Below are positions 20,422-29,522 of a stretch of 32,000 bases of DNA, in pieces. Under the pieces are notes generated by a model. It saw nothing but the letters and a program-made list of their open reading frames with translations, did no database searches and was not told where the DNA came from. Both the position numbers and the translations under genes were made by a program. Each line of letters starts with the position of its first letter. Within the stretch, counting starts at the first letter, position 1. Source of the DNA: Candidatus Nanosynbacter sp. BB002 (GTDB lineage Bacteria; Patescibacteriota; Saccharimonadia; Saccharimonadales; Saccharimonadaceae); assembly GCF_037013405.1 (NCBI RefSeq), contig NZ_CP146064.1:510001-542000 (forward strand), written 5' to 3'.

Positions 20422-21063
20422 TTATTTTTTCTTACTGAGTTGAAGCTTCTTATCCTTCAGCTTCAATACTACATCCGCTTGCTTGGCCAGCTGTTTACTA
20501 TGAGTGACGACGATGACACATTTGTCGTTTTTGTGGGCGGCCCGGCGCAGGATGTTGATAATGTCGGCAGCGGTGGTTTCGTCCAGGTTACCAGTTGGCT
20601 CGTCCGCCAAGATAATCGGTGCGGAGGATACCAGCGCTCGCCCGATCGCCACGCGTTGTTGCTGACCGCCAGAAAGTTTCATGACGTTGCGATTGATATG
20701 ATCGTCGTCCAGTCCCATGGCGTGCAACGTTTCGTTGGTAGCCTTCGGATTAACTAATTTCAAGTTTTCCAGCGGCGTCAAGTAGTCGATCAGGTTATAA
20801 TTCTGAAATACCAGTGAGATATTGTGTTTGCGATGATGCGAGTAGCCCTGCTCGGCGATGTCTTGATCATCGAACAAAATCTGCCCGCCAGTCGGTGTGT
20901 CTAGCCCCGCTAGCAGTCCCAGCAGTGTCGACTTGCCGGCGCCAGAACTACCGACGATGGCGTAGAATTTGCCTTTTTCAAACTGATAATTGATGCCGTT
21001 GAGCACATTGCTAGTGCCGTCGGCGTATGAGTAAATGATATCGCGTAACGTAAGTATTGACAT
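20422..21063 (-). CDS. ABC transporter ATP-binding protein (MacB/LolD-like)
   Basis: 213 aa. Walker A is GSSGAGKSTLL, the signature is LSGGQQQRVAIGRAL and Walker B is ILADEPTGNLD. Confidence 0.9.
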   Translation of the reverse strand: MSILTLRDIIYSYADGTSNVLNGINYQFEKGKFYAIVGSSGAGKSTLLGLLAGLDTPTGGQILFDDQDIAEQGYSHHRKHNISLVFQNYNLIDYLTPLENLKLVNPKATNETLHAMGLDDDHINRNVMKLSGGQQQRVAIGRALVSSAPIILADEPTGNLDETTAADIINILRRAAHKNDKCVIVVTHSKQLAKQADVVLKLKDKKLQLSKKK

Positions 21064-21071
21064 AATAACTC

Positions 21072-22313
21072 CTAACTTAATTTTGCTAAAATTTGCTTTG
21101 GTGATTGGCGCATAATTGGCGCGGTGGCAGCGGTGGCTGATAGCAGAACGACCATGTAGCCGAAGGCGAAAGCCTCTAGGTAGGTCGCCACTGGCGCGGC
21201 GTGCACCGCAGTCTTTTCTGTGCGCTGGCTTTGGTCGGTTTGCGCTGTCAGGGCAGTAGAAATTTGCGATGAGGCGACCGAGCCAATGGCGAGCGCGAAC
21301 ACCGAACTAACTAGAGCGATGATGGCCAGCTCTGCCAAGAACTGCCCGATAATCTGCCGCTTCGACGTGCCGATAGACAGCAAGATGCCAATTTCATGCA
21401 AGCGGCCGCGCACCCAGAACACCAGCACCAGTGACAGTACCGCCAACCCCGCTGCGGCTGCGCCGATGGTGGCAATCGTCAAAATATTTTGAATGCCAGC
21501 GATGTTTTGGAGAACTCCAGCGAACACGGCCCCGTTGTCAGTCAGGCTGAATTTCTGCCAATCGACGTTTGGTAAACTTTTGACGTGGTCCGTTAACGAC
21601 TTCAGCTGATGCGGATTTTCGGCGAAATACGTCGCTCGAGTCAACTGCTGGCTACCCGTCAGCTGCTGCGCCACAGCTAAGTTGGTTATGACATGATTCT
21701 CCGCCATGTCGGACTGTAAGACCGCTGGCTTTTCGCCTTTGCCGCTGAAGATACCAGCGACAGTCACCGTCACCCGCCGGCCGTCTTTGGTGATGTCCAG
21801 CTTGTCGCCTGGCTTGATATTATTTTTCTCAGCGAACGTTTTGTGAATCAGGGCCGCGTTTTGATCGTGCTCGGTCAAATGCTTGCCCTGCTCCAGTTGG
21901 TAAAATTTACCAGTGAACTCGCTAAGCAGATTACTCTGTGTGGCGCCCGTCACCTTCGCTTCGCCAGCAATCCCAGCGTCCAGCTGCACACCGCCGCCTG
22001 CCGTGTCGATTAATTGCTTGCCCGGCAGTCCCGCGGTGGTCTCTGTCTGGAAATTGTGCGCTTTGACGCCATGTGCACGCTGCACCTGTCGTGCCATTTC
22101 CATCGGCACCTCGCCCGATGACTGCTTGCTGGCGATACTAAAGCCAGCGCGGATGTTCCGCTCGACCGATTGCTTCAGCTGCGCCATCGTCTGCTGCACT
22201 GTCAGCGTACCGATCAGCAGCGTGAAAATCAGCGTCATGATCAGGGCGATGGTCAGGCTGCGACGCCGCCGCCGCGCCACAGCCGTCCAGGCTCGTTTGA
22301 TAATCGTCATCAT
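21072..22313 (-). CDS. ABC transporter permease, FtsX/MacB-type (4 TM, large extracytoplasmic domain)
   Basis: 413 aa. TM1 lies near the N-terminus (LTIALIMTLIFTLLIGTL), followed by a soluble loop of about 230 aa. The C-terminal FtsX module has three TMs and RGRLHEIGILLSIGTSKRQI. Confidence 0.85.
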   Translation of the reverse strand: MMTIIKRAWTAVARRRRRSLTIALIMTLIFTLLIGTLTVQQTMAQLKQSVERNIRAGFSIASKQSSGEVPMEMARQVQRAHGVKAHNFQTETTAGLPGKQLIDTAGGGVQLDAGIAGEAKVTGATQSNLLSEFTGKFYQLEQGKHLTEHDQNAALIHKTFAEKNNIKPGDKLDITKDGRRVTVTVAGIFSGKGEKPAVLQSDMAENHVITNLAVAQQLTGSQQLTRATYFAENPHQLKSLTDHVKSLPNVDWQKFSLTDNGAVFAGVLQNIAGIQNILTIATIGAAAAGLAVLSLVLVFWVRGRLHEIGILLSIGTSKRQIIGQFLAELAIIALVSSVFALAIGSVASSQISTALTAQTDQSQRTEKTAVHAAPVATYLEAFAFGYMVVLLSATAATAPIMRQSPKQILAKLS

Positions 22314-22319
22314 TCGCCC

Positions 22320-23702
22320 CTAGTCCACTTCAGTTAGTAATTCTTTTGGCGTTGATTGGGTAATCGGCCGCGAAGCCAGCAGCACTGCAATGATAATCAC
22401 CGCCAGTCCAGCGCCCCACACTGCCAGCAGATCTGTCGGTTGTACACCAACCGTCACCTTTTCTAGCGTGCGCGATGACGTCACCGAGTCAGCGTCAGCA
22501 CCGAGCGATGCACCATTGAGGGAACTGCCAGCTTGACGTGTGGCATTCTGCGCCGCCTGCGACACCACGTGATCGCCCATTTGTTGAGCAATCAGCCCTG
22601 CAGTAAAGTACGACGCACCGAAGCTCAGCACCGCGATCATCACCAGCTCAGCGATGTATTGCAGTACAATCTTTGACTGCGGCACACCCGTCGCCAAGAG
22701 TACGCCCGCTTCGCGCTTGCGTTCGTTCATCCACAAGTACAGCACCATGCCGATCACCGCCACACTAACCAGCGCCGTCGCCCACAACATACCGTCGATC
22801 AGACCGTACACACCGTTCACTGCGCCAGTTACGCCAGCCAGTTCCTGGTTATTCTTATTCAATTGATACTTTTGCCAATTGACCGGCAATTTATTTGCCC
22901 GTGCCATCACCTCATCCAACTGTTTGGTGCCCTTGGTGAAGAACGTAGCGTCCTGGTAAATCTCATTTTGCTCGGTATAGGCATTCAGCTGGCGGGTTGT
23001 CGTGAGGTCAGTCAAGAACAAATTCTCGAACAGCTCCACCTGATAGGTCGCCTGCTTTGGGTTTTTGCCGGTAAATATACCGACGATTTCTACCTCGACC
23101 TCGTCCTTGGATGGATGCTCGTTATCGGTGTCGTATTGATTGGCCCTTAACTTAATTTTGCTACCAAGCTTCAGGTTGTTGGCCTTGGCGAAAGCTTCGT
23201 GCACCAAAATCTTGTGCGAATCGTTCTCGGTGATGTGCCGGCCAGCGATGAGCTTGAGCGACTCAGCCCGGAACTTTTTCTCGGACTCAGATTTATTAAC
23301 ACCGATGATGGTAGCGGCGTTACCAAACTGTTTATCTTTCTCGGCATCATAACCGCTGCCGCCACTCGGTAGTGGCACTAGCTTGGTATTGATAAAATCG
23401 ACCGTGGCGTTCTGGCGCTTGACATAGTCCGTCACACCCCCCAGATTCTTCACCGCGTCGATGTCTTTGTTTGACACCGTTCCCGAACCGCGGGCGGTTC
23501 CTGGATTGGTGCGCGGATTATTGCCCAGCGTGAAGCCGGCCTTGAGCGTTTTGTCCAGCGACTGCGCCGCCGCGTCGGTCGAATGCTTAATGGCAAATCC
23601 ACTCAGCATAATCGTCGACATACACAGCAAAATCGCCAGCAAAATCAGCGTTTTGAGTTTTTTCCTGGTGATGTAGAGCCAGGCACGTTGTACAAATGAC
23701 AT
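22320..23702 (-). CDS. ABC transporter permease, FtsX/MacB-type paralog
   Basis: 460 aa with the same architecture: TM1 LILLAILLCMSTIMLSGFAI, a large loop and NERKREAGVLLATGVPQSKI in the FtsX module. SD AAAGGAG precedes the ATG. Confidence 0.85.
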   Translation of the reverse strand: MSFVQRAWLYITRKKLKTLILLAILLCMSTIMLSGFAIKHSTDAAAQSLDKTLKAGFTLGNNPRTNPGTARGSGTVSNKDIDAVKNLGGVTDYVKRQNATVDFINTKLVPLPSGGSGYDAEKDKQFGNAATIIGVNKSESEKKFRAESLKLIAGRHITENDSHKILVHEAFAKANNLKLGSKIKLRANQYDTDNEHPSKDEVEVEIVGIFTGKNPKQATYQVELFENLFLTDLTTTRQLNAYTEQNEIYQDATFFTKGTKQLDEVMARANKLPVNWQKYQLNKNNQELAGVTGAVNGVYGLIDGMLWATALVSVAVIGMVLYLWMNERKREAGVLLATGVPQSKIVLQYIAELVMIAVLSFGASYFTAGLIAQQMGDHVVSQAAQNATRQAGSSLNGASLGADADSVTSSRTLEKVTVGVQPTDLLAVWGAGLAVIIIAVLLASRPITQSTPKELLTEVD

Positions 23703-23873: not shown

Positions 23874-23943
23874 CAAGTCACTCGCATTTGTTCAGATGGA
23901 TTTCTCCAATCTAGGGGATGCGCACCCCAATCTGTTGTCCTAT

Positions 23944-25290
23944 CTACTTCTCGACCTCAATGACGTGAACGCCGAGGCGTTCCTTGTGGTCAGGGTAGAT
24001 CTTGCGGAGGAGGCGAAGTGCCTCCTCTTCACTCTTCGCCTGCGGCACGATCTGCTGCCACACTTCCGATGAGAGCATGTCAGCGAAGCTACGGTAGATG
24101 CGGATCGACTTGATACGTACCACGCCAGACGTATGTCCAGTCTCGAGCTGCAACAGCCCTCCCGCCTTAAGGCGCTTGATACTGTTGTAGCCGACGCGAA
24201 CTTCGAGAGTCTTACAACCCTCCATGATGGCGTCGAAATAGGGCTTCTTGATGCGCATCTTACGCACACTTGCTCCTTCCTTGTTGAAGTTGAATCCCCA
24301 CTGCTGAACCACGCTGTTCGGCGCGTACCCACCGGGGAACACGCCCTCCAGGCTCCAGCCATGACGCTGGAGACAGGCGACCTGCCACGGCTCGGGAACC
24401 AAGTGGACATACAGCTTGTGACCGTAGTCCTCCAACAACCCCTGCAGGTCGATAATGAGTGCCTCAAACGCCGCCTCTGACGAGGCCACCAAAGGCATCA
24501 GCTTGATGGGCCGCCCCTTCTTAGGAGTAGCCCCAGCGACACCGACCACCCGACCGTCGCACTCAGCGACGAAGATGATTTTGAACTTGGTGTTCACGTC
24601 GCCAGACTCCATACGACGGTAACCAGCAAATAGGGCGTCAACCCAGTTGCTATCCACACCGTCGAAGTCGCCACTCATCTGCGACAGAATGAGAGCTCGC
24701 GCGCCGTCGGCGTGTTGGCTCTCATCGAACGGAACCACAGAGATGTTCGGCGAGTCAAACCCCGCCTCGTCAATGAGCTGCTTATACAGCATATGCTCAT
24801 CGATGCCGATCTTGTAGTGATCCTTCGCTGTTCCGGTGATGCGGAAGCCCTTCCGGAGGAAGAATCCCAGCGCCTTTTTATTCGGTTCTGCCACAGTGCA
24901 GTAGATCTGCCGAGCACCGAGGCTACGGGCGAAATCTTCAGCGTGCTTGAGCAGCATGCTTCCAACGCCCATCTTCCCTCGGTACGCCGTATCAACGATG
25001 AGGGGGCTGATCTTGACAGTCCCCTGCTTCTTCTCTACGACGTGGATGACTCCGACCTGCCGTCCATCGCTCTCGGCGATGAACATGTACTGTCCAGCAG
25101 AGAACTGGCCAACACGGTCAATGCCACCCGCGATGTGCGCGTCAAAGATGCGCCGCGCATGTGCGTAGTGGTCACCGTCATAAAACGGTGTGAGCGCCCG
25201 GATCATAAGATCCGCGACGAAATCGAAGTCGTCAGCCCTTGCTGGGCGCACGACGATGTTGCTGACTGATGCTTCAGTCACAATGTACAC
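23944..25290 (-). CDS. three-domain protein: GNAT acetyltransferase + degenerate GNAT-like domain + C-terminal ASCH (PUA-like) domain
   Basis: 448 aa.
- GNAT 1 has the acetyl-CoA motif A: LIVDTAYRGKMGVGSMLLKHAEDFA...ALGFFLRKGF.
- The second GNAT-like repeat (VVGVAGATPKKGRPIKLMPLVASSEAAFEAL...LQRHGWSLEG) lacks the R/Q-x-x-G-x-G/A loop.
- The last roughly 100 aa (MRIKKPYFDAIMEGCKTLEVRVGY...GVHVIEVEK) match the ASCH pattern.
- The start is a GTG at 25290 or 25281, after AGGAAGG. Confidence 0.75.
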   Translation of the reverse strand: MYIVTEASVSNIVVRPARADDFDFVADLMIRALTPFYDGDHYAHARRIFDAHIAGGIDRVGQFSAGQYMFIAESDGRQVGVIHVVEKKQGTVKISPLIVDTAYRGKMGVGSMLLKHAEDFARSLGARQIYCTVAEPNKKALGFFLRKGFRITGTAKDHYKIGIDEHMLYKQLIDEAGFDSPNISVVPFDESQHADGARALILSQMSGDFDGVDSNWVDALFAGYRRMESGDVNTKFKIIFVAECDGRVVGVAGATPKKGRPIKLMPLVASSEAAFEALIIDLQGLLEDYGHKLYVHLVPEPWQVACLQRHGWSLEGVFPGGYAPNSVVQQWGFNFNKEGASVRKMRIKKPYFDAIMEGCKTLEVRVGYNSIKRLKAGGLLQLETGHTSGVVRIKSIRIYRSFADMLSSEVWQQIVPQAKSEEEALRLLRKIYPDHKERLGVHVIEVEK

Positions 25291-25340
25291 CTTCCTGTGA
25301 TGGCTACGATTTTTGACGTAGCTCGGATAGGACAGTCATT

Positions 25341-25349
25341 ATTATATCA
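25341..25349 (-). promoter_or_regulatory. extended -10 box (TGATATAAT) for the GNAT-ASCH gene
   Basis: The minus strand reads TGATATAAT and overlaps the stop codon of the upstream ASCH gene. It lies about 45 nt upstream of the GNAT start, with AGGAAGG as SD. Confidence 0.5.
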
Positions 25350-25688
25350 TCGAGATAATATAAATTCAATACCCACTACCCCATGTAGTCTCTGGTCTTC
25401 AATAGAATAAAATTCGTTGATTTGATTTTCTAGCCATGCAACACTCTCGCCGCCAAATTTCTGCGGATCATTGTGCGAAAACAAATCATGAAACGTCGCA
25501 TAGCGCAATAAACCGACGACTGTAACAGCAGCAGTTTGGCTGGGATTGTCTCGATTGGTAAAGATAATCTGGTCGCCGATTTGAATTTTCTGGCGCTTGT
25601 CGTCATATAGCCGTGATTCGATGGTTTTATTGCCAGAAGTGATGGCGTCAAAAGGTTCGGTGGCTAGTTTTAATTGGTGTGTTGTCAT
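25347..25688 (-). CDS. ASCH domain protein (113 aa)
   Basis: HQLKLATEPFDAITSGNKTIESRLYDDKRQKIQIGDQIIF...YATFHDLF...GVVGIEF follows the ASCH/PUA-like pattern (L-K-L...F..I..G-K-T-x-E-x-R...GD). It has the same layout as the C-terminus of the GNAT fusion. Confidence 0.7.
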   Translation of the reverse strand: MTTHQLKLATEPFDAITSGNKTIESRLYDDKRQKIQIGDQIIFTNRDNPSQTAAVTVVGLLRYATFHDLFSHNDPQKFGGESVAWLENQINEFYSIEDQRLHGVVGIEFILSR

Positions 25689-25696
25689 AGTAGATT

Positions 25697-25705
25697 ATTA
25701 TATCA
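25697..25705 (-). promoter_or_regulatory. extended -10 box (TGATATAAT), leaderless geometry, for the 113-aa ASCH gene
   Basis: The minus strand reads TGATATAAT. The hexamer ends 8 nt before ATG 25688 and there is no SD. Confidence 0.5.
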
Positions 25706-25767
25706 GAATAAATTAATACTAACTACCTGGGAAGCGTAGGCTTTACTGTATCACTATTCAATAATCA

Positions 25768-26040
25768 TCAATCAACCCGCTCGGCAAGCGACATCACTTG
25801 ATAGCCGTATTGATCAATATCTTCTTGTTTCCAAAAATCGATTTCTTTCGTGCGTAAAACTTCGCCGACTACGTGACGGACTTTGCGACCGGTTGGCGTT
25901 CCGTCATAATTTACCTCAACCTGTTCCAAAATATCGCCAGGTTGGATGTCAAAATCAGCCACCCTCATATCAAACGTTTTCTCGCCCGCTAGGACTTTTT
26001 CGAATAAATCAGGGTAAGATTTTTTGGTGATAATTTTCAT
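25768..26040 (-). CDS. DUF3850-like / ASCH-related small PUA-fold protein (90 aa)
   Basis: MKIITKKSYPDLFEKVLAGEKTFDMRVADFDIQPGDILEQVEV...TGRKVRHVVGEV matches the DUF3850 pattern (P..F..V..G.KTFE.R..DRDF.vGD.L.L.E....TGR). I set the start at ATG 26040, which has TATAAT 7 nt upstream. The track ORF extends to 26121 and would overlap the divergent gene. Confidence 0.6.
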   Translation of the reverse strand: MKIITKKSYPDLFEKVLAGEKTFDMRVADFDIQPGDILEQVEVNYDGTPTGRKVRHVVGEVLRTKEIDFWKQEDIDQYGYQVMSLAERVD

Positions 26041-26047
26041 ACGTTTT

Positions 26048-26053
26048 ATTATA
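26048..26053 (-). promoter_or_regulatory. -10 box (TATAAT), leaderless geometry, for the DUF3850-like gene
   Basis: The minus strand reads TTTTATAATAAAACGT-ATG. The hexamer ends 7 nt from the ATG. Confidence 0.4.
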
Positions 26054-26084
26054 AAAGATGAATCATGAAACTGCCTACCTTTCT

Positions 26085-26093
26085 TGCTATAAT
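26085..26093 (+). promoter_or_regulatory. extended -10 box (TGCTATAAT) for the 125-aa hypothetical gene
   Basis: TGCTATAAT ends 12 nt before ATG 26106. It is divergent from the DUF3850-like promoter. Confidence 0.45.
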
Positions 26094-26105
26094 CAAGGTT
26101 GCCAT

Positions 26106-26483
26106 ATGAACAATTATTCAAACATCCTGTTCCCAGAAATAATCAATGAAGCGTTTCCAATTCTCGACGATGCATCATATATTCGCCAGCTGGCGTCTCT
26201 CGTTCCGCTCTGTCCTGATACAACATTTCATCTGTTTAGTCATAAGGGGCAGTATCTTGCATTGGTAATGACAGACTATCCTGACCCGTTTTATCAGAGC
26301 GAGGAGCTCAAGCAAATTTCTGGGGAATATAAATTTGAGTTCATCCATATTATCAAGCCTTATGCCAACAACCAGAGTATTGAAATTCGTCCGAACGAAG
26401 ACATGGATGACAGCTTTTTCGTTTCAGATCCGAAGAGCTATTATCGGTATTATTTAGCTGCGGTTAGACAAAATAGCCGCTAA
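26106..26483 (+). CDS. hypothetical protein (125 aa), acidic, no recognised domain
   Basis: ORF MNNYSNILFPEIINEAFPILDD...YYLAAVRQNSR. I chose ATG 26106 because the promoter at 26085-26093 lies inside the longer track ORF, which starts at 26058. Confidence 0.5.
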   Translation: MNNYSNILFPEIINEAFPILDDASYIRQLASLVPLCPDTTFHLFSHKGQYLALVMTDYPDPFYQSEELKQISGEYKFEFIHIIKPYANNQSIEIRPNEDMDDSFFVSDPKSYYRYYLAAVRQNSR

Positions 26484-26499
26484 CTGTAAGTATATCAGT

Positions 26500-26805
26500 C
26501 TACAGTTGCCCATTGGTTATCAATGCCCTGCCGTCGATCAGCTGCTTTGCTTTCACGTTATACTGCTTTGTCCATTTCAATGTCAGCACCAGCGCGCACC
26601 ATATACACAAAATCCCGATGTAATCCAAAATCTGAATGCTATTGTTATAAATGACGCCTCCAATGATGCCACCCAGTACATAATTCTGCACTTGATCGCT
26701 GGCGGATGACGGTGATAAATTACCTTTCCCGGAAATGTTGATGATTATCGTCAGCGCGAAAAAGCCAATCAACAGTTTTATTGCTACTAAAATGAATTCA
26801 TTCAT
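26500..26805 (-). pseudogene. truncated YetF/DUF421-family membrane protein (N-terminal TM module only)
   Basis: The 101 aa align by eye with the first ~105 residues of B. subtilis YetF (sequence recalled from memory): ...GKGNLSPSSASDQVQNYVLGGIIGG...WTKQYNVKAKQLIDGRALITNGQL. The ORF then stops, so the soluble C-terminal domain of about 120 aa is absent. TGCTAAAAT lies 6 nt upstream of the ATG. Confidence 0.55.
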
Positions 26806-26914
26806 GATTTGATTTTAGCACAGATATCTAGTGTCTCGGTATGACATACTTGGTGGCGGTCTTTATGTAAAGCAGGGGCCGAGAGTTCGTTTGACGACTT
26901 TAATCACGCACAAT

Positions 26915-27493
26915 TTAGGACAACCTATTCTTGGACCCGTATTTTTCTCTAGCTATTTTAGTATACTTTCTGATGAAATCACTTTTTGCATCAGTATACC
27001 CATCCCTATCATTCTCAAATTCCTTCCAAAGATTCAGTTTTAATTTTTCGTACTCTTTGGCGATGCTACTATTTTCAATTAGATAATCCCTAAAATAGAT
27101 CTCATCATTATCTCCCGCCACCCTAATGTGGAGATGAAATACCTTATCCGCAAAGCCCTGCTTGGTATATCCATTATTCAATGAGATTCGTTTTGCTTTC
27201 TGACTCATACACAGCCAATTATTTTCAACAAGAATATTTTTTACAGGCTCTAATTCTTTTTCCGACGGGACTTCAAGCAATATATCTACTATATTCTTTG
27301 CCTGTATATTTGGGATAGCTGTACTCCCAATGTGGGATATTCGTGTTATATATTTTTCCGGCACCAATGAGGAGATGGATTTTACCTCCTCATCATACCA
27401 GTGCACCCATTCTCGATTGTGTTCTACAAGAAATATAGGGAATAGTTGCCACAATTCTTCCAAACTCATTTTCTCTAGTTCTCTATCCATCAC
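26915..27493 (-). CDS. GrpB family protein (nucleotidyltransferase-fold, UPF0157)
   Basis: 192 aa. ISHIGSTAIPNIQAKNIVDILLEV, HLHIRVAGDNDEIYFRDYL and YEKLKLNL...DRDGYTDAKSDFI are typical GrpB motifs. AGGAGG SD is present and the ATG lies 6 nt after the kinase stop. Confidence 0.8.
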   Translation of the reverse strand: MMDRELEKMSLEELWQLFPIFLVEHNREWVHWYDEEVKSISSLVPEKYITRISHIGSTAIPNIQAKNIVDILLEVPSEKELEPVKNILVENNWLCMSQKAKRISLNNGYTKQGFADKVFHLHIRVAGDNDEIYFRDYLIENSSIAKEYEKLKLNLWKEFENDRDGYTDAKSDFIRKYTKIAREKYGSKNRLS

Positions 27494-27499
27494 ATCCTC

Positions 27500-28885
27500 C
27501 TACTCAAACCTCACCACAAACCGCATGCCCCGCCCGTGCGGTGTGAAGTCATAGTCAAGGCCTTTGGTGTCGAGTAGCATCTTCACGGTGTAGAGGCCGA
27601 TGCCACTGCTGTCGGCATGTTGCTTCATGTCGTCAGAACTGCGATAAAACGGGTCAAAGACGTGCTGGAGTTGCTGTTTAGTGAGTGGCCTGCAGGCATT
27701 TTCGATAGCCAGCTCATTCTGGTTGCAAGTAATTTTTATCACGCTCCTGACGTCGCCATGGCGCACCGCGTTTGACACCAGGTTTGAGATGACGTGGCGT
27801 ATCATGTCTCGGTTAGCGCGAATGGTCGTCGGACGCGCGTCAACCGTGAAAGTCATGCCGCGCGTTTTTGCTAGCAACATATAATCGTCAACCACCTCAG
27901 CGGCCAGCTTATCGATCCTCAGCCGTTTCTCCTGGTGCAAAGCCTGCTCGGCGACACTGCCAGAGCGCAAAACGTCATTCACCATCGCCGCCAAGCGATC
28001 AACCTGCGCCACCGATTCCGCCAGGTACTGGTCGCGATTTTTATATTCGCCGATGTTTAGTTGCATGTTCTCGAGCATGATCCGGAGGGCTGCTAGTGGC
28101 GTTTTTAGCTCGTGCGAGGCCGCACGTAAAAACGCGATTTTTTCCTTTTCCAGCTGCGTGATCCGCTTATTCTCATGCTCCAGCGAGCGAATCGTTTGCC
28201 ACAGGTTTTGATAGAGTTCGTTAATGTTTCGTCCTAGCACGCCGATTTCATCACTGCTATTTACTGGATAATGCGCATCCTTTTCCAGCCGCTGCATGGT
28301 CGTGGTCACCGCCGCCATCTGGCGAATCGGCCGCGTCACAAAACGGCTATAGATGTACGAAAACACGAGTGCCACCAACAGCGAGCCAAGCATGGTATAG
28401 GGTAGTACCTGCAGCGTGGCGAGCTTGGCCTGAGTGACAGGCGCCACATCGGCCAACAGCTTGACGGCGATCGTTTGACCTTGGCTATTCGCCACACTTC
28501 CCTGCCGCAAAATCACCGAGCGCGGATCAATTGTTTGGCCATCAGCGATTTTCACCACGCTGGCGTCAACCGATTTACCGCTGTCCGTCACAATGTTGAT
28601 CGACTGAAAACCCTGAAAATACTGGTCGCGACCGTCAATCGTCAGCGTGATATTAACATTTTTCACTTGAGCAAACTCCTGGCTGAGACGATGCATTTCC
28701 TCAGTCGATTTGCCACGTAGTTCAGCCACGAGCGCCGTGAGATTGTCCGCCGCCTCGCGCTCTTTTTGTTGCAGATAAAATTGCGGCATCAAGGTGTAGA
28801 CCAGCGCATGTACCAGGACGATCAACGCCGCAAACAGGCCGATTGACACCAAAAATGTTTTGGGGAATAATTTAAGATTCTTCAT
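27500..28885 (-). CDS. sensor histidine kinase (two TM, extracytoplasmic loop, HAMP, HisKA, HATPase_c)
   Basis: 461 aa. The H-box is FLRAASHELKTPL, the N-box is LVSNAVRHG and the G-box is DSSGIGLYTVK. TM1 lies at residues ~10-30 and TM2 at ~160-180. It overlaps the regulator gene by 14 nt. Confidence 0.9.
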   Translation of the reverse strand: MKNLKLFPKTFLVSIGLFAALIVLVHALVYTLMPQFYLQQKEREAADNLTALVAELRGKSTEEMHRLSQEFAQVKNVNITLTIDGRDQYFQGFQSINIVTDSGKSVDASVVKIADGQTIDPRSVILRQGSVANSQGQTIAVKLLADVAPVTQAKLATLQVLPYTMLGSLLVALVFSYIYSRFVTRPIRQMAAVTTTMQRLEKDAHYPVNSSDEIGVLGRNINELYQNLWQTIRSLEHENKRITQLEKEKIAFLRAASHELKTPLAALRIMLENMQLNIGEYKNRDQYLAESVAQVDRLAAMVNDVLRSGSVAEQALHQEKRLRIDKLAAEVVDDYMLLAKTRGMTFTVDARPTTIRANRDMIRHVISNLVSNAVRHGDVRSVIKITCNQNELAIENACRPLTKQQLQHVFDPFYRSSDDMKQHADSSGIGLYTVKMLLDTKGLDYDFTPHGRGMRFVVRFE

Positions 28886-29522
28886 AGCGATAACCCACCC
28901 CCTTCACCGTGACGATGCAGTCTAGGTGCAATTTTTTGCGTAAGTTTTTGATATAGACATCAATCACTCGGTCGAACGGCACCTCATCATCACGCCACAA
29001 TTTATCAATGATAGCCTGGCGGCTCCAGACCATGTTTGGATTATCCACTAGCAGCTTGAGCAACTGCACTTCCTTGGGCTTGAGGTGCGCGTCAGTATCA
29101 TCATAAAATCCCTGATAGGCAGCAAAATCCACCGAGGCCAAACCGCGCTGCCACAAGGTTTTTTTGACAGACTGCTGGCGACGAAGTAGTGCCTTAATTC
29201 GCTTTTCTAAAATCACCAGCGAAAACGGCTTACTCATATAGTCATCCGCCAGCTCGTCAAAACTCGCAACTTGCGTCGGCTCATCATGCAGAGCCGTCAG
29301 CATCAACACCGGCACGTCGCTGGTCTGGCGAATTTGATGCAATACCTCAATGCCACTCATCCCTGGTAGCATGATGTCAAGGACAATCACATCCGCCCCA
29401 GCGAACTTATCAAGCGCCTCCTCGCCGCTGGTCGCCGTTATCACCGTAAAGCCGCGCTGGCGCAGGAATTGCTCGGTGCCAGTGCGCACCGCTGGTTCGT
29501 CTTCAACCAGGAGAATGTTCAT
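28872..29522 (-). CDS. OmpR/PhoB-family response regulator
   Basis: 216 aa. The receiver domain has MNILLVEDE, VLDIMLPG (phospho-Asp) and SKPF. The winged-helix output domain ends in TVKGVGYRY. It has an ATGA overlap with the upstream hydrolase gene. Confidence 0.9.
   Translation of the reverse strand: MNILLVEDEPAVRTGTEQFLRQRGFTVITATSGEEALDKFAGADVIVLDIMLPGMSGIEVLHQIRQTSDVPVLMLTALHDEPTQVASFDELADDYMSKPFSLVILEKRIKALLRRQQSVKKTLWQRGLASVDFAAYQGFYDDTDAHLKPKEVQLLKLLVDNPNMVWSRQAIIDKLWRDDEVPFDRVIDVYIKNLRKKLHLDCIVTVKGVGYRYEES

Follow-up and report, generated by a model that had tools for sequence, protein, structure and literature searches.

The DNA analysed here is a stretch of 32,000 nucleotides (the window) from Candidatus Nanosynbacter sp. 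BB002 (contig NZ_CP146064.1, positions 510,001 to 542,000), in which three adjacent genes on the minus strand, here called A, B and C, each encode an ASCH-type module of the PUA-like fold, fused in A to a tandem GNAT acyltransferase. A reading made from the letters alone (the sequence-only reading) had proposed that the three form one locus that writes, reads and erases an acyl mark on a nucleobase. Its account of three neighbouring genes with such modules was borne out by the open reading frames (ORFs) and by Pfam, which matched A and B to ASCH and C to DUF3850. The features are as follows, all on the minus strand.

23944-25290: gene A, tandem GNAT plus ASCH fusion, 448 amino acids (aa) from a GTG at 25290 (ORF, Pfam)
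24763-25269: A domain 1, intact GNAT, residues 8-176 (Pfam, invariant residues, structural matches)
24961-24984: A motif A, YRGKMGVG, residues 103-110 (sequence)
24277-24762: A domain 2, degenerate GNAT repeat, residues 177-338 (hhalign, AlphaFold 2 (AF2) model, fold matches)
23947-24258: A domain 3, predicted ASCH barrel, residues 345-448 (Pfam, Pyrococcus matches)
24196-24219: A ASCH octapeptide GCKTLEVR, residues 358-365 (sequence)
25347-25688: gene B, stand-alone ASCH protein, 113 aa (Pfam, sequence matches in the Protein Data Bank (PDB))
25611-25634: B octapeptide GNKTIESR, residues 19-26 (sequence)
25768-26040: gene C, DUF3850 (ASCH-like) protein, 90 aa (Pfam; ORF extendable to a TTG at 26121)
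25963-25986: C motif GEKTFDMR, residues 19-26 (sequence)

The product of A has a match at 100% identity in Ca. Nanosynbacter sp. BB002 / N. featherlites (Saccharibacteria, TM7), where it is entered as 'GNAT family N-acetyltransferase'; its database homologues begin at codon 4, giving 445 aa.

Domain content of the three proteins

Residues 66-149 of A match the Pfam GNAT model (PF00583; 5.7e-17), and the YRGKMGVG motif, from which an intact GNAT had been called, holds the acetyl-coenzyme A (CoA) pyrophosphate-binding loop (R104-G-K-M-G-V-G110). In the family alignment, G80, K93, Y130, G148 and E165 are invariant in domain 1, which carries the family signatures YDGDHxAHAxRIF and KKQGTxKISPLIV, while PKKGxPIKLMPL and TQQW mark domain 2. 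A second, loop-less GNAT repeat had likewise been proposed, and profile-profile alignment of residues 8-176 with 177-338 (hhalign) recovered it at a probability of 97.5% (E 6e-12, 147 columns), with five residues missing from the second half exactly where the first half has YRGKMGVG. The AF2 model of A contains two GNAT folds and a small barrel (predicted local distance difference test (pLDDT) of 80.8); at a predicted template modelling score of 0.45 its individual domains are reliable and their mutual arrangement is unreliable, and no composite active site was inferred from it. Within PDB it matches tandem-GNAT proteins best (2wpw/2wpx, VipF, 4my0 and 9en3) and next the single GNATs PaiA, SpeG, RimI and Ard1. 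No NCBIfam family name was adopted, every match being far below cut-off, and a phage origin was rejected, as PHROGs returned only the generic families 'acetyltransferase' and 'RNA-binding protein'. Look-ups by exact sequence with A and the proteins P0002 and P0138 gave no entry.

Residues 345-447 of A match Pfam ASCH (PF04266; 1.3e-10), as do residues 7-110 of B (1.3e-9), the N-terminal half of which also matches DUF3850 (5.2e-6). By sequence, both the A domain (6e-11) and B (4e-8) match the Pyrococcus ASCH structures 2z0t, 1s04 and 1xne, the Pyrococcus proteins concerned being PH0355, PF0455 and PF0469, and the A domain is modelled as strands and helices at a pLDDT of ~75-90. C matches DUF3850 (PF12961; 4e-8, 33.8 bits at a cut-off of 22.9) and phrog_986 (1.6e-8), its ASCH match reaching only 0.066; it had no sequence match in PDB, and its single-sequence AF2 model (pLDDT 53) was too poor for use. 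As B matches both models, ASCH and DUF3850 describe related folds, and C is predicted to be PUA-like from its DUF3850 hidden Markov model match, an N-terminal motif shared with B (BLASTP 2e-4) and the double match of B.

The ASCH octapeptide GxKxx(E/D)xR is present in all three proteins. Its Lys and Glu are conserved in all A-type fusions, and K21, E24 and R26 are invariant among B homologues; in C the Glu is replaced by Asp. These residues matter for catalysis: YqfB of Escherichia coli is an ASCH protein with N4-acetylcytidine (ac4C) amidohydrolase activity, and enzymes of its type take varied N4-acyl groups (PMC6972931); ac4C in tRNA was deacetylated by 19 of 19 ASCH proteins of diverse kinds, the GKER type and homologues from Pyrococcus among them, the octapeptide Lys and Glu were essential in mutated TthASCH, EOLA1 and TRIP4-ASCH, the Glu-to-Asp change seen in C was tolerated in TthASCH and EOLA1, and ASCH proteins with an isoelectric point (pI) of ~9 or above bound tRNA (bioRxiv 10.64898/2026.02.27.708502). 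The charge of the modules differs: the A domain is basic (pI 9.7; median pI 9.8 and net charge +7 over 64 homologues), while B (pI 5.45; median net charge -3 across homologues) and C (pI 4.84) are acidic.

Conservation and setting of the gene pair

A scan of species-representative genomes with a 12-sequence alignment found relatives of A in 199 genomes, and the best 80 loci were examined; these came from Saccharibacteria and other Patescibacteria (Levyi-, Buchanan-, Magasanik-, Taylor-, Andersen-, Doudna- and Moraniibacteria). By iterative searches of the locus ORFs, a B-like gene of ~112 aa directly adjoins the tandem-GNAT gene in 71 of the 80; in six of the nine loci without it the contig stops at A, which leaves 74 informative loci, 71 of them with B. 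B lies upstream of A on the same strand in Saccharibacteria, while in 12 loci at ~50% identity (titles include Buchanan-, Magasanik-, Taylor-, Andersen-, Doudna- and Moraniibacteria) it lies downstream on the opposite strand, convergent with A. Even tandem-GNAT genes lacking an ASCH domain (L082-L084) adjoin B. Apart from B, no neighbour was conserved across lineages in the A-centred loci.

C behaves otherwise. It was found near A in only ~10 of 85 A-centred loci, all from Saccharibacteria and at least eight of them recovered through Nanosynbacter-type A proteins, usually at ~3 kb from A, with a NUDIX gene, two unknown genes and an HU-like gene between C and B; in locus L050 it stands directly upstream of A, in the place of B. 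The three-gene system of A, B and C that had been proposed is rejected on account of the few loci with C and of its membership of a variable island of distinct composition (described below), and the neighbourhood comparison that had been suggested upholds the adjacency of A and B across Patescibacteria but not a constant place for C. The conserved unit is A plus B.

The reverse comparison, in which B-like proteins fetched 80 metagenomic loci (all at ≥69% identity to B), showed A in 47 of them, while at least 25 with ample flanking sequence lack it. Two of these (L111 and L140) have B followed directly by the same FtsX-FtsX-ABC genes as the window, and in the DNA alignment ~1.6 kb containing A is replaced by ~41 bp, which makes A a strain-variable gene at a fixed site; no flanking repeats were found at this indel when L111 and L140 were compared with A-bearing DNA. 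Within Saccharibacteria the chromosomal position of A is stable. Thus A almost always has B, and B often stands alone, so that the genes do not make up an obligate three-part system.

Base composition sets the two genes apart. GC content at third codon positions (GC3) is 0.72 in A, 0.65-0.68 in the flanking transporter and kinase genes, and 0.38-0.43 in B (0.40), C, a 141-aa ORF (orf141) and GrpB. Over 74 loci the GC3 of A exceeds that of B in 93%, by 0.28 on average, and A is mostly far above its neighbours outside Saccharibacteria too, with the L059-L063 clade as the exception.

That A is rarely found without B and B often without A fits an eraser or recycler which a writer needs and which is useful on its own. 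It would also fit a toxin-antidote or defence module, in which A acetylates cytidine in tRNA, aminoacyl-tRNA, DNA or the cytidine triphosphate (CTP) pool and arrests growth, while B reverses or blocks the effect. A lone B would then resemble an orphan antitoxin; the basic A domain and the acidic B are complementary in charge; A is polymorphic in presence and atypical in GC3; relatives in Mycobacterium are patchy two-gene cassettes with a Nuc_deoxyrib_tr gene; and the layout parallels GNAT-EVE plus ASCH operons interpreted as toxin-antitoxin (TA)-like (PMC7641849). We regard such a module as very improbable: a search for known defence or TA systems with PADLOC gave only a weak generic GNAT match, PIN, AAA_17, restriction-modification (RM) or prophage contexts were not seen in the A loci, the convergent arrangement of a whole clade is unusual for TA pairs, three loci hold an intact A without B, and the stable position within Saccharibacteria and the repeat-free indel also count against it.

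The low-GC variable island (25300-27500) lies between a histidine kinase gene and B and holds GrpB, YetF, orf141 and C, its YetF being shortened to 101 aa from 209 aa in relatives. At this site, close relatives have the histidine kinase directly beside B, or Ham1-like, NUDIX, HU-like and other genes, and GrpB occurs in related strains too. C, YetF and GrpB are 92-98% identical (C 95-98%) between the window and genomes whose A is 87% and B 82% identical, which suggests a recent exchange of the island between strains. The 141-aa ORF (26058-26483, plus strand) had no Pfam, NCBIfam or PHROG match; it represents a conserved Saccharibacteria family (45-93% identity in more than 40 fetched loci), mostly on the strand opposite to B and near B with or without A.

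A response regulator, the histidine kinase, two FtsX-type permeases and an ATP-binding cassette (ABC) ATPase flank the pair (20422-23702 and 27500-29522). In L006-type genomes (L006-L008) the order response regulator, histidine kinase, B, A, FtsX, FtsX, ABC is contiguous on one strand and resembles a sensor-controlled efflux or detoxification module. A NUDIX hydrolase of 164-169 aa recurs in 26 of 85 loci (for example, L001 2707-3510 and L009 9684-10193), directly after C in L001-type genomes and shortly after A in L009-type ones, and is absent from the window. One locus of an uncultured bacterium (L065, 6039-9863) carries an A paralogue, B, a second A paralogue and a 123-aa ASCH gene on one strand.

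Two promoter-like sites, each a consensus match only, were noted on the minus strand.

25341-25369: TTGAAT-17-TATAAT with TG, directly 5' of A and overlapping the end of B
26048-26077: TAGGCA-18-TATAAT, directly 5' of C

Similar GATATAATAAT strings with a TATAAT -10 box precede both A (25341-25369) and B (~25700-25715). An inverted repeat, GGGGTGCGCATCCCC, follows the A stop codon (23914-23928) and has no T-run. Promoter and terminator scans gave no excess over the shuffled expectation, and Rfam and tRNA searches gave no features in the window.

The amicetin cluster and a candidate write/erase pair

An exhaustive search among 50%-identity cluster representatives recovered three architectures of the tandem GNAT (GNAT2): GNAT2-ASCH, GNAT2 alone, and GNAT2 with a C-terminal MazG-like / dUTPase_2 domain in the place of ASCH. 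Four GNAT2-ASCH proteins (P0122, P0123, P0124 and P0154) carry an extra N-terminal ~110-170 residues with no Pfam match. The MazG-like fusion occurs in Photorhabdus, Corynebacterium propinquum and Mycobacterium (among them M. simiae and M. marinum), and in Mycobacterium attenuatum it forms a two-gene cassette by overlapping a Nuc_deoxyrib_tr gene (L088 6001-7829). In Streptomyces sp. MNP-20 the MazG-like protein is encoded by a separate, overlapping downstream gene, which indicates that the GNAT2-MazG fusion reflects a functional pair. The tandem GNAT is always fused or adjacent to a nucleotide-handling partner, either ASCH in bacteria of the Candidate Phyla Radiation (CPR) or a MazG-like nucleoside triphosphate pyrophosphatase with or without Nuc_deoxyrib_tr.

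The surroundings of the C. propinquum and Photorhabdus genes comprise DegT aminotransferase, NDP-hexose 2,3-dehydratase, glycosyltransferase, methyltransferase, Nuc_deoxyrib_tr and CoA-ligase genes; C. propinquum, a human nasal commensal, and Photorhabdus temperata thus each have an operon resembling that for amicetin, which includes an AmiF-like gene (L086/L087 6001-13356; L090). A further protein search returned many Streptomyces members, one of them from strain SHP22-7. In S. rochei (P0328) and SHP22-7 (P0355) the tandem GNAT is the sixth gene of a unidirectional cluster, whose genes 1 to 6 encode 4-amino-4-deoxychorismate (ADC) lyase, DegT, 2,3-dehydratase, ketoreductase, thymidylyltransferase and GNAT2-MazG-like proteins, followed from gene 7 on by glycosyltransferase, methyltransferase, Nuc_deoxyrib_tr, a 403-aa protein, a 4-ketoreductase-like protein, CoA ligase and p-aminobenzoic acid (PABA) synthase. 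Each gene of the SHP22-7 cluster has its counterpart in the amicetin cluster of S. vinaceusdrappus, where amiA (ADC lyase) comes first and all genes run in one direction (PMC7040171). The sixth gene is therefore taken, by its position, to be amiF.

Residues 3-333 of A align with S. rochei P0328 over 331 columns with one gap, at 39% identity (E 1e-75) and across both GNAT halves. Ten residues (Y37, G39, H41, R47, D58, S64, Q67, W312, Q330 and W331) are invariant in ASCH-linked and MazG-linked members and presumably lie on the acceptor side. In a rough neighbour-joining tree most ASCH-linked sequences cluster apart from the Streptomyces/amiF-position clade, a grouping that is not clean, as Mycobacterium and Corynebacterium MazG forms and a few ASCH-linked representatives fall outside. 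The C-terminal MazG-like domain of the amiF-position protein was matched by Pfam at 1.3e-6 and 1.7e-5 (L172 10001-11359; L173 10001-11407); the amicetin literature examined makes no mention of its tandem-GNAT plus MazG-like architecture. According to Zhang et al. in 2012, amiF is said to be the N-acetyltransferase-family gene of the amicetin cluster, its deletion reportedly accumulates cytosamine as does deletion of the CoA-ligase gene amiL, and AmiF is said to be the amide synthase that joins PABA to cytosine N4. The sequence-only reading had named membership of a well-characterised small-molecule acetyltransferase family as a point against it; A does have such relatives, yet the substrate reported for them, cytosine N4, strengthens the proposed chemistry.

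The amiF alignment also bears on whether A and B share any chemistry at all. A might instead be a RimI/SpeG-like protein or polyamine acetyltransferase with an ASCH tail that only anchors it on RNA or on the ribosome, while B and C would be unrelated house-cleaning enzymes that lie nearby by chance: among named proteins, domain 1 is matched best in sequence by RimI (5.8e-11, below cut-off), Naa50 and SpeG, one source names the A homologues 'RimI-like', and Ham1, NUDIX and GrpB genes sit in the neighbouring island of related strains. These RimI/SpeG-type matches are generic GNAT similarity well below the family cut-offs, however, while the amiF-position homologue matches both halves, the A-B adjacency outlasts rearrangement across phyla as other neighbours change, and the tandem GNAT keeps a nucleotide-handling partner throughout, so that we give this explanation the smallest chance of those considered.

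The reading we prefer, and to which we would assign about an even chance, is that A and B form a cytosine-N4 acyl write/erase pair in Patescibacteria. It would account for the conserved adjacency, for the dependence of A on B with no converse, and for the pairing of the tandem GNAT with nucleotide-handling domains. The sequences show the domain make-up, the duplication within A, the lasting adjacency of A and B, the relation of A to the amiF-position gene and the exchange of ASCH for a MazG-like domain; the acceptor atom, the acyl donor, the substrate in the cell and a hydrolase role for each of the three ASCH modules are inferred. A domain 1 would transfer an acyl, probably acetyl, group from acyl-CoA to the exocyclic N4 amine of cytosine; domain 2, its CoA loop lost, would help to form the acceptor pocket, as do inactive halves of other tandem GNATs; the basic ASCH domain would hold the substrate or product that contains the cytidine, perhaps also hydrolysing acyl groups put in the wrong place; and the acidic B, as an N4-acylcytidine amidohydrolase, would return cytidine to the usable pool, a recovery that would matter in organisms needing pyrimidine salvage. 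C would be a further ASCH-like protein of the variable island, adjacent in this strain by chance. The acyl mark on a cytidine-like base that had been suggested is thereby strengthened in its chemistry; for a 'reader' none of the results speaks. As to the substrate, a rough division gives free nucleosides or nucleotides and RNA equal standing, each somewhat short of an even chance, with DNA quite improbable.

RNA is considered because the fused ASCH domain is basic and basic ASCH proteins bind tRNA. As a specific sub-case of the write/erase pair, A could acetylate N4 of cytidine in RNA without ATP and so add a third type of ac4C writer to TmcA/NAT10 and TmcAL, with the basic ASCH domain binding RNA and B recycling the free ac4C of RNA turnover. 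We think this unlikely but worth keeping in view. The opposed charges of the fused domain (basic throughout the 64 homologues) and of B agree with it, as do the tRNA binding at pI ~9 or above (bioRxiv 10.64898/2026.02.27.708502) and the commonness of PUA-like fusions to RNA-modifying enzymes (Bell 2020, PMC7641849); the need of A for B mirrors TmcA and YqfB of E. coli, and A is dispensable between strains. Yet the closest characterised relative of A acts on a small molecule, A has no helicase or tRNA-binding domain of the TmcA type by Pfam, and the fused ASCH, with both catalytic residues (Lys and Glu) in place, ought to remove the mark again. A somewhat wider version, an ATP-independent AmiF-like cytidine N4-acyl writer in Patescibacteria that acts on tRNA, rRNA or the CTP pool, is guided by its basic ASCH domain and is coupled to an ASCH eraser, seems to us similarly doubtful, a shade more so.

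The amicetin connection admits a further explanation, in which the pair detoxifies cytosine-nucleoside ribosome inhibitors (amicetin, plicacetin, blasticidin-type) from actinobacterial hosts or neighbours, ASCH cleaving the N4-acyl pharmacophore and the GNAT acetylating free cytosine N4 or another amine. The one-strand order of several Nanosynbacter genomes noted above is a typical layout of drug-efflux modules under sensor control, A has a relative in amicetin biosynthesis and matches streptothricin acetyltransferases weakly, an amicetin-like operon occurs in the human commensal C. propinquum, A is a strain-variable accessory gene, and YqfB-type enzymes accept varied N4-acyl groups (PMC6972931). 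We hold this to be fairly improbable: only part of Saccharibacteria shows the transporter and two-component genes around the pair, other CPR loci having unrelated neighbours; B would reverse an acetyl cap; and CPR lineages from groundwater and the environment carry the pair too.

Several points weigh against the write/erase pair itself. Genes inherited together as a cassette would not be expected to differ in GC3 as A and B do (0.72 and 0.40), a whole clade has the two genes convergent and hence not co-transcribed, and three loci (L050, L051 and L053) have an intact A without B. The sixth cluster gene was assigned to amiF by gene order. AmiF uses an aromatic acyl-CoA and a disaccharide nucleoside, a specificity that may not carry over at 39% identity, and the matches of A to RimI, SpeG, Naa50 and streptothricin acetyltransferases are all equally weak and unspecific. 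Finally, a writer and an apparently active eraser on one polypeptide look futile, which the reading does not explain.

ASCH proteins were recognised as ac4C amidohydrolases only recently, and we know of no cellular partners for them. Here, in several candidate phyla, an ASCH gene keeps company with a transferase, and the nearest relative of that enzyme to have been studied is said to acylate cytosine N4; the two would be a concrete candidate for a writer/eraser combination. If the substrate is RNA, ac4C would have a third route of formation, and reversible RNA acetylation could be studied in a natural system; if it is a free nucleoside or nucleotide, the pair would bear on the handling of modified cytidine in obligate epibionts unable to make pyrimidines or, alternatively, on resistance to the cytosine-nucleoside antibiotics of actinobacterial hosts. 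Should A prove an ATP-independent writer, the smallest known bacteria would possess a compact, reversible modification system of the ac4C type. Furthermore, AmiF is placed in a wider tandem-GNAT family with an ASCH or MazG-like partner, which may help to annotate nucleoside-antibiotic clusters, including that of nasal Corynebacterium.

Comparison with known systems

Among ASCH proteins, YqfB, TthASCH, the Pyrococcus and Archaeoglobus proteins and EOLA1 share with B and A domain 3 the predicted ASCH fold and the GxKxxExR ('GKER') motif with its essential Lys and Glu. B is small and acidic like the YqfB type, which does not bind RNA; unlike YqfB, it is genomically tied to an acyltransferase, to which a further ASCH copy is fused. 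C departs from the YqfB/GKER type by its Asp for Glu and by matching the DUF3850 rather than the ASCH model.

With TmcA/NAT10, A shares a GNAT-fold catalytic domain and the predicted use of acetyl-CoA, and the product of TmcA/NAT10 and TmcAL, N4-acetylcytidine, is possibly common to A as well. A belongs to a different GNAT subfamily, however, and had no helicase/ATPase, DUF1726, GNAT_acetyltr_2 or tRNA-binding Pfam match. TacT/AtaT-type toxins are single GNATs beside a DUF1778/ribbon-helix-helix antitoxin, whereas A adjoins an ASCH gene.

Closest in layout are the (PIN)-GNAT-EVE fusions with an ASCH gene in the operon, which Bell, Wolf & Koonin predicted computationally in 2020 (PMC7641849) and which, as cited there, Iyer et al. 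2013 had described earlier; the sequence-only reading, to which no described system of such layout was known, had overlooked them. These uncharacterised systems were interpreted as acetylating a base in nucleic acid or as TA-like (PMC7641849). Like A and B, they combine a GNAT that bears a C-terminal PUA-superfamily domain with a separate ASCH gene; unlike A, they have EVE rather than ASCH as the fused domain and a single GNAT. PIN and AAA_17 partners and RM or prophage contexts are frequent among them and absent around A and B, and no Pfam match to EVE, PIN or AAA_17 was found in A, B or C. They are known from Proteobacteria, Firmicutes and archaea, while A plus B belongs to the CPR.

AmiF, from the amicetin cluster of the Streptomyces vinaceusdrappus / rochei group, resembles A most closely in the enzyme itself: both are tandem GNATs with an intact first and a degenerate second half, the amiF-position protein shares the signature motifs at 39% identity over a module of ~330 residues, both end in a nucleotide-handling domain, and the chemistry proposed for both is the acylation of cytosine N4 from acyl-CoA. 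AmiF differs in having a MazG-like domain where A has ASCH, in its place within a 20-gene antibiotic cluster with deoxysugar, PABA and CMP-hydrolase genes, and in its substrates, PABA-CoA and a disaccharide nucleoside; A has no biosynthetic neighbours but lies among genes of the island, of a two-component system and of an ABC transporter, and is partnered by an ASCH protein. A plus B is thus best described as an AmiF-like acyltransferase recruited to ASCH partners in Patescibacteria, which has so far been annotated only as 'GNAT family N-acetyltransferase'.

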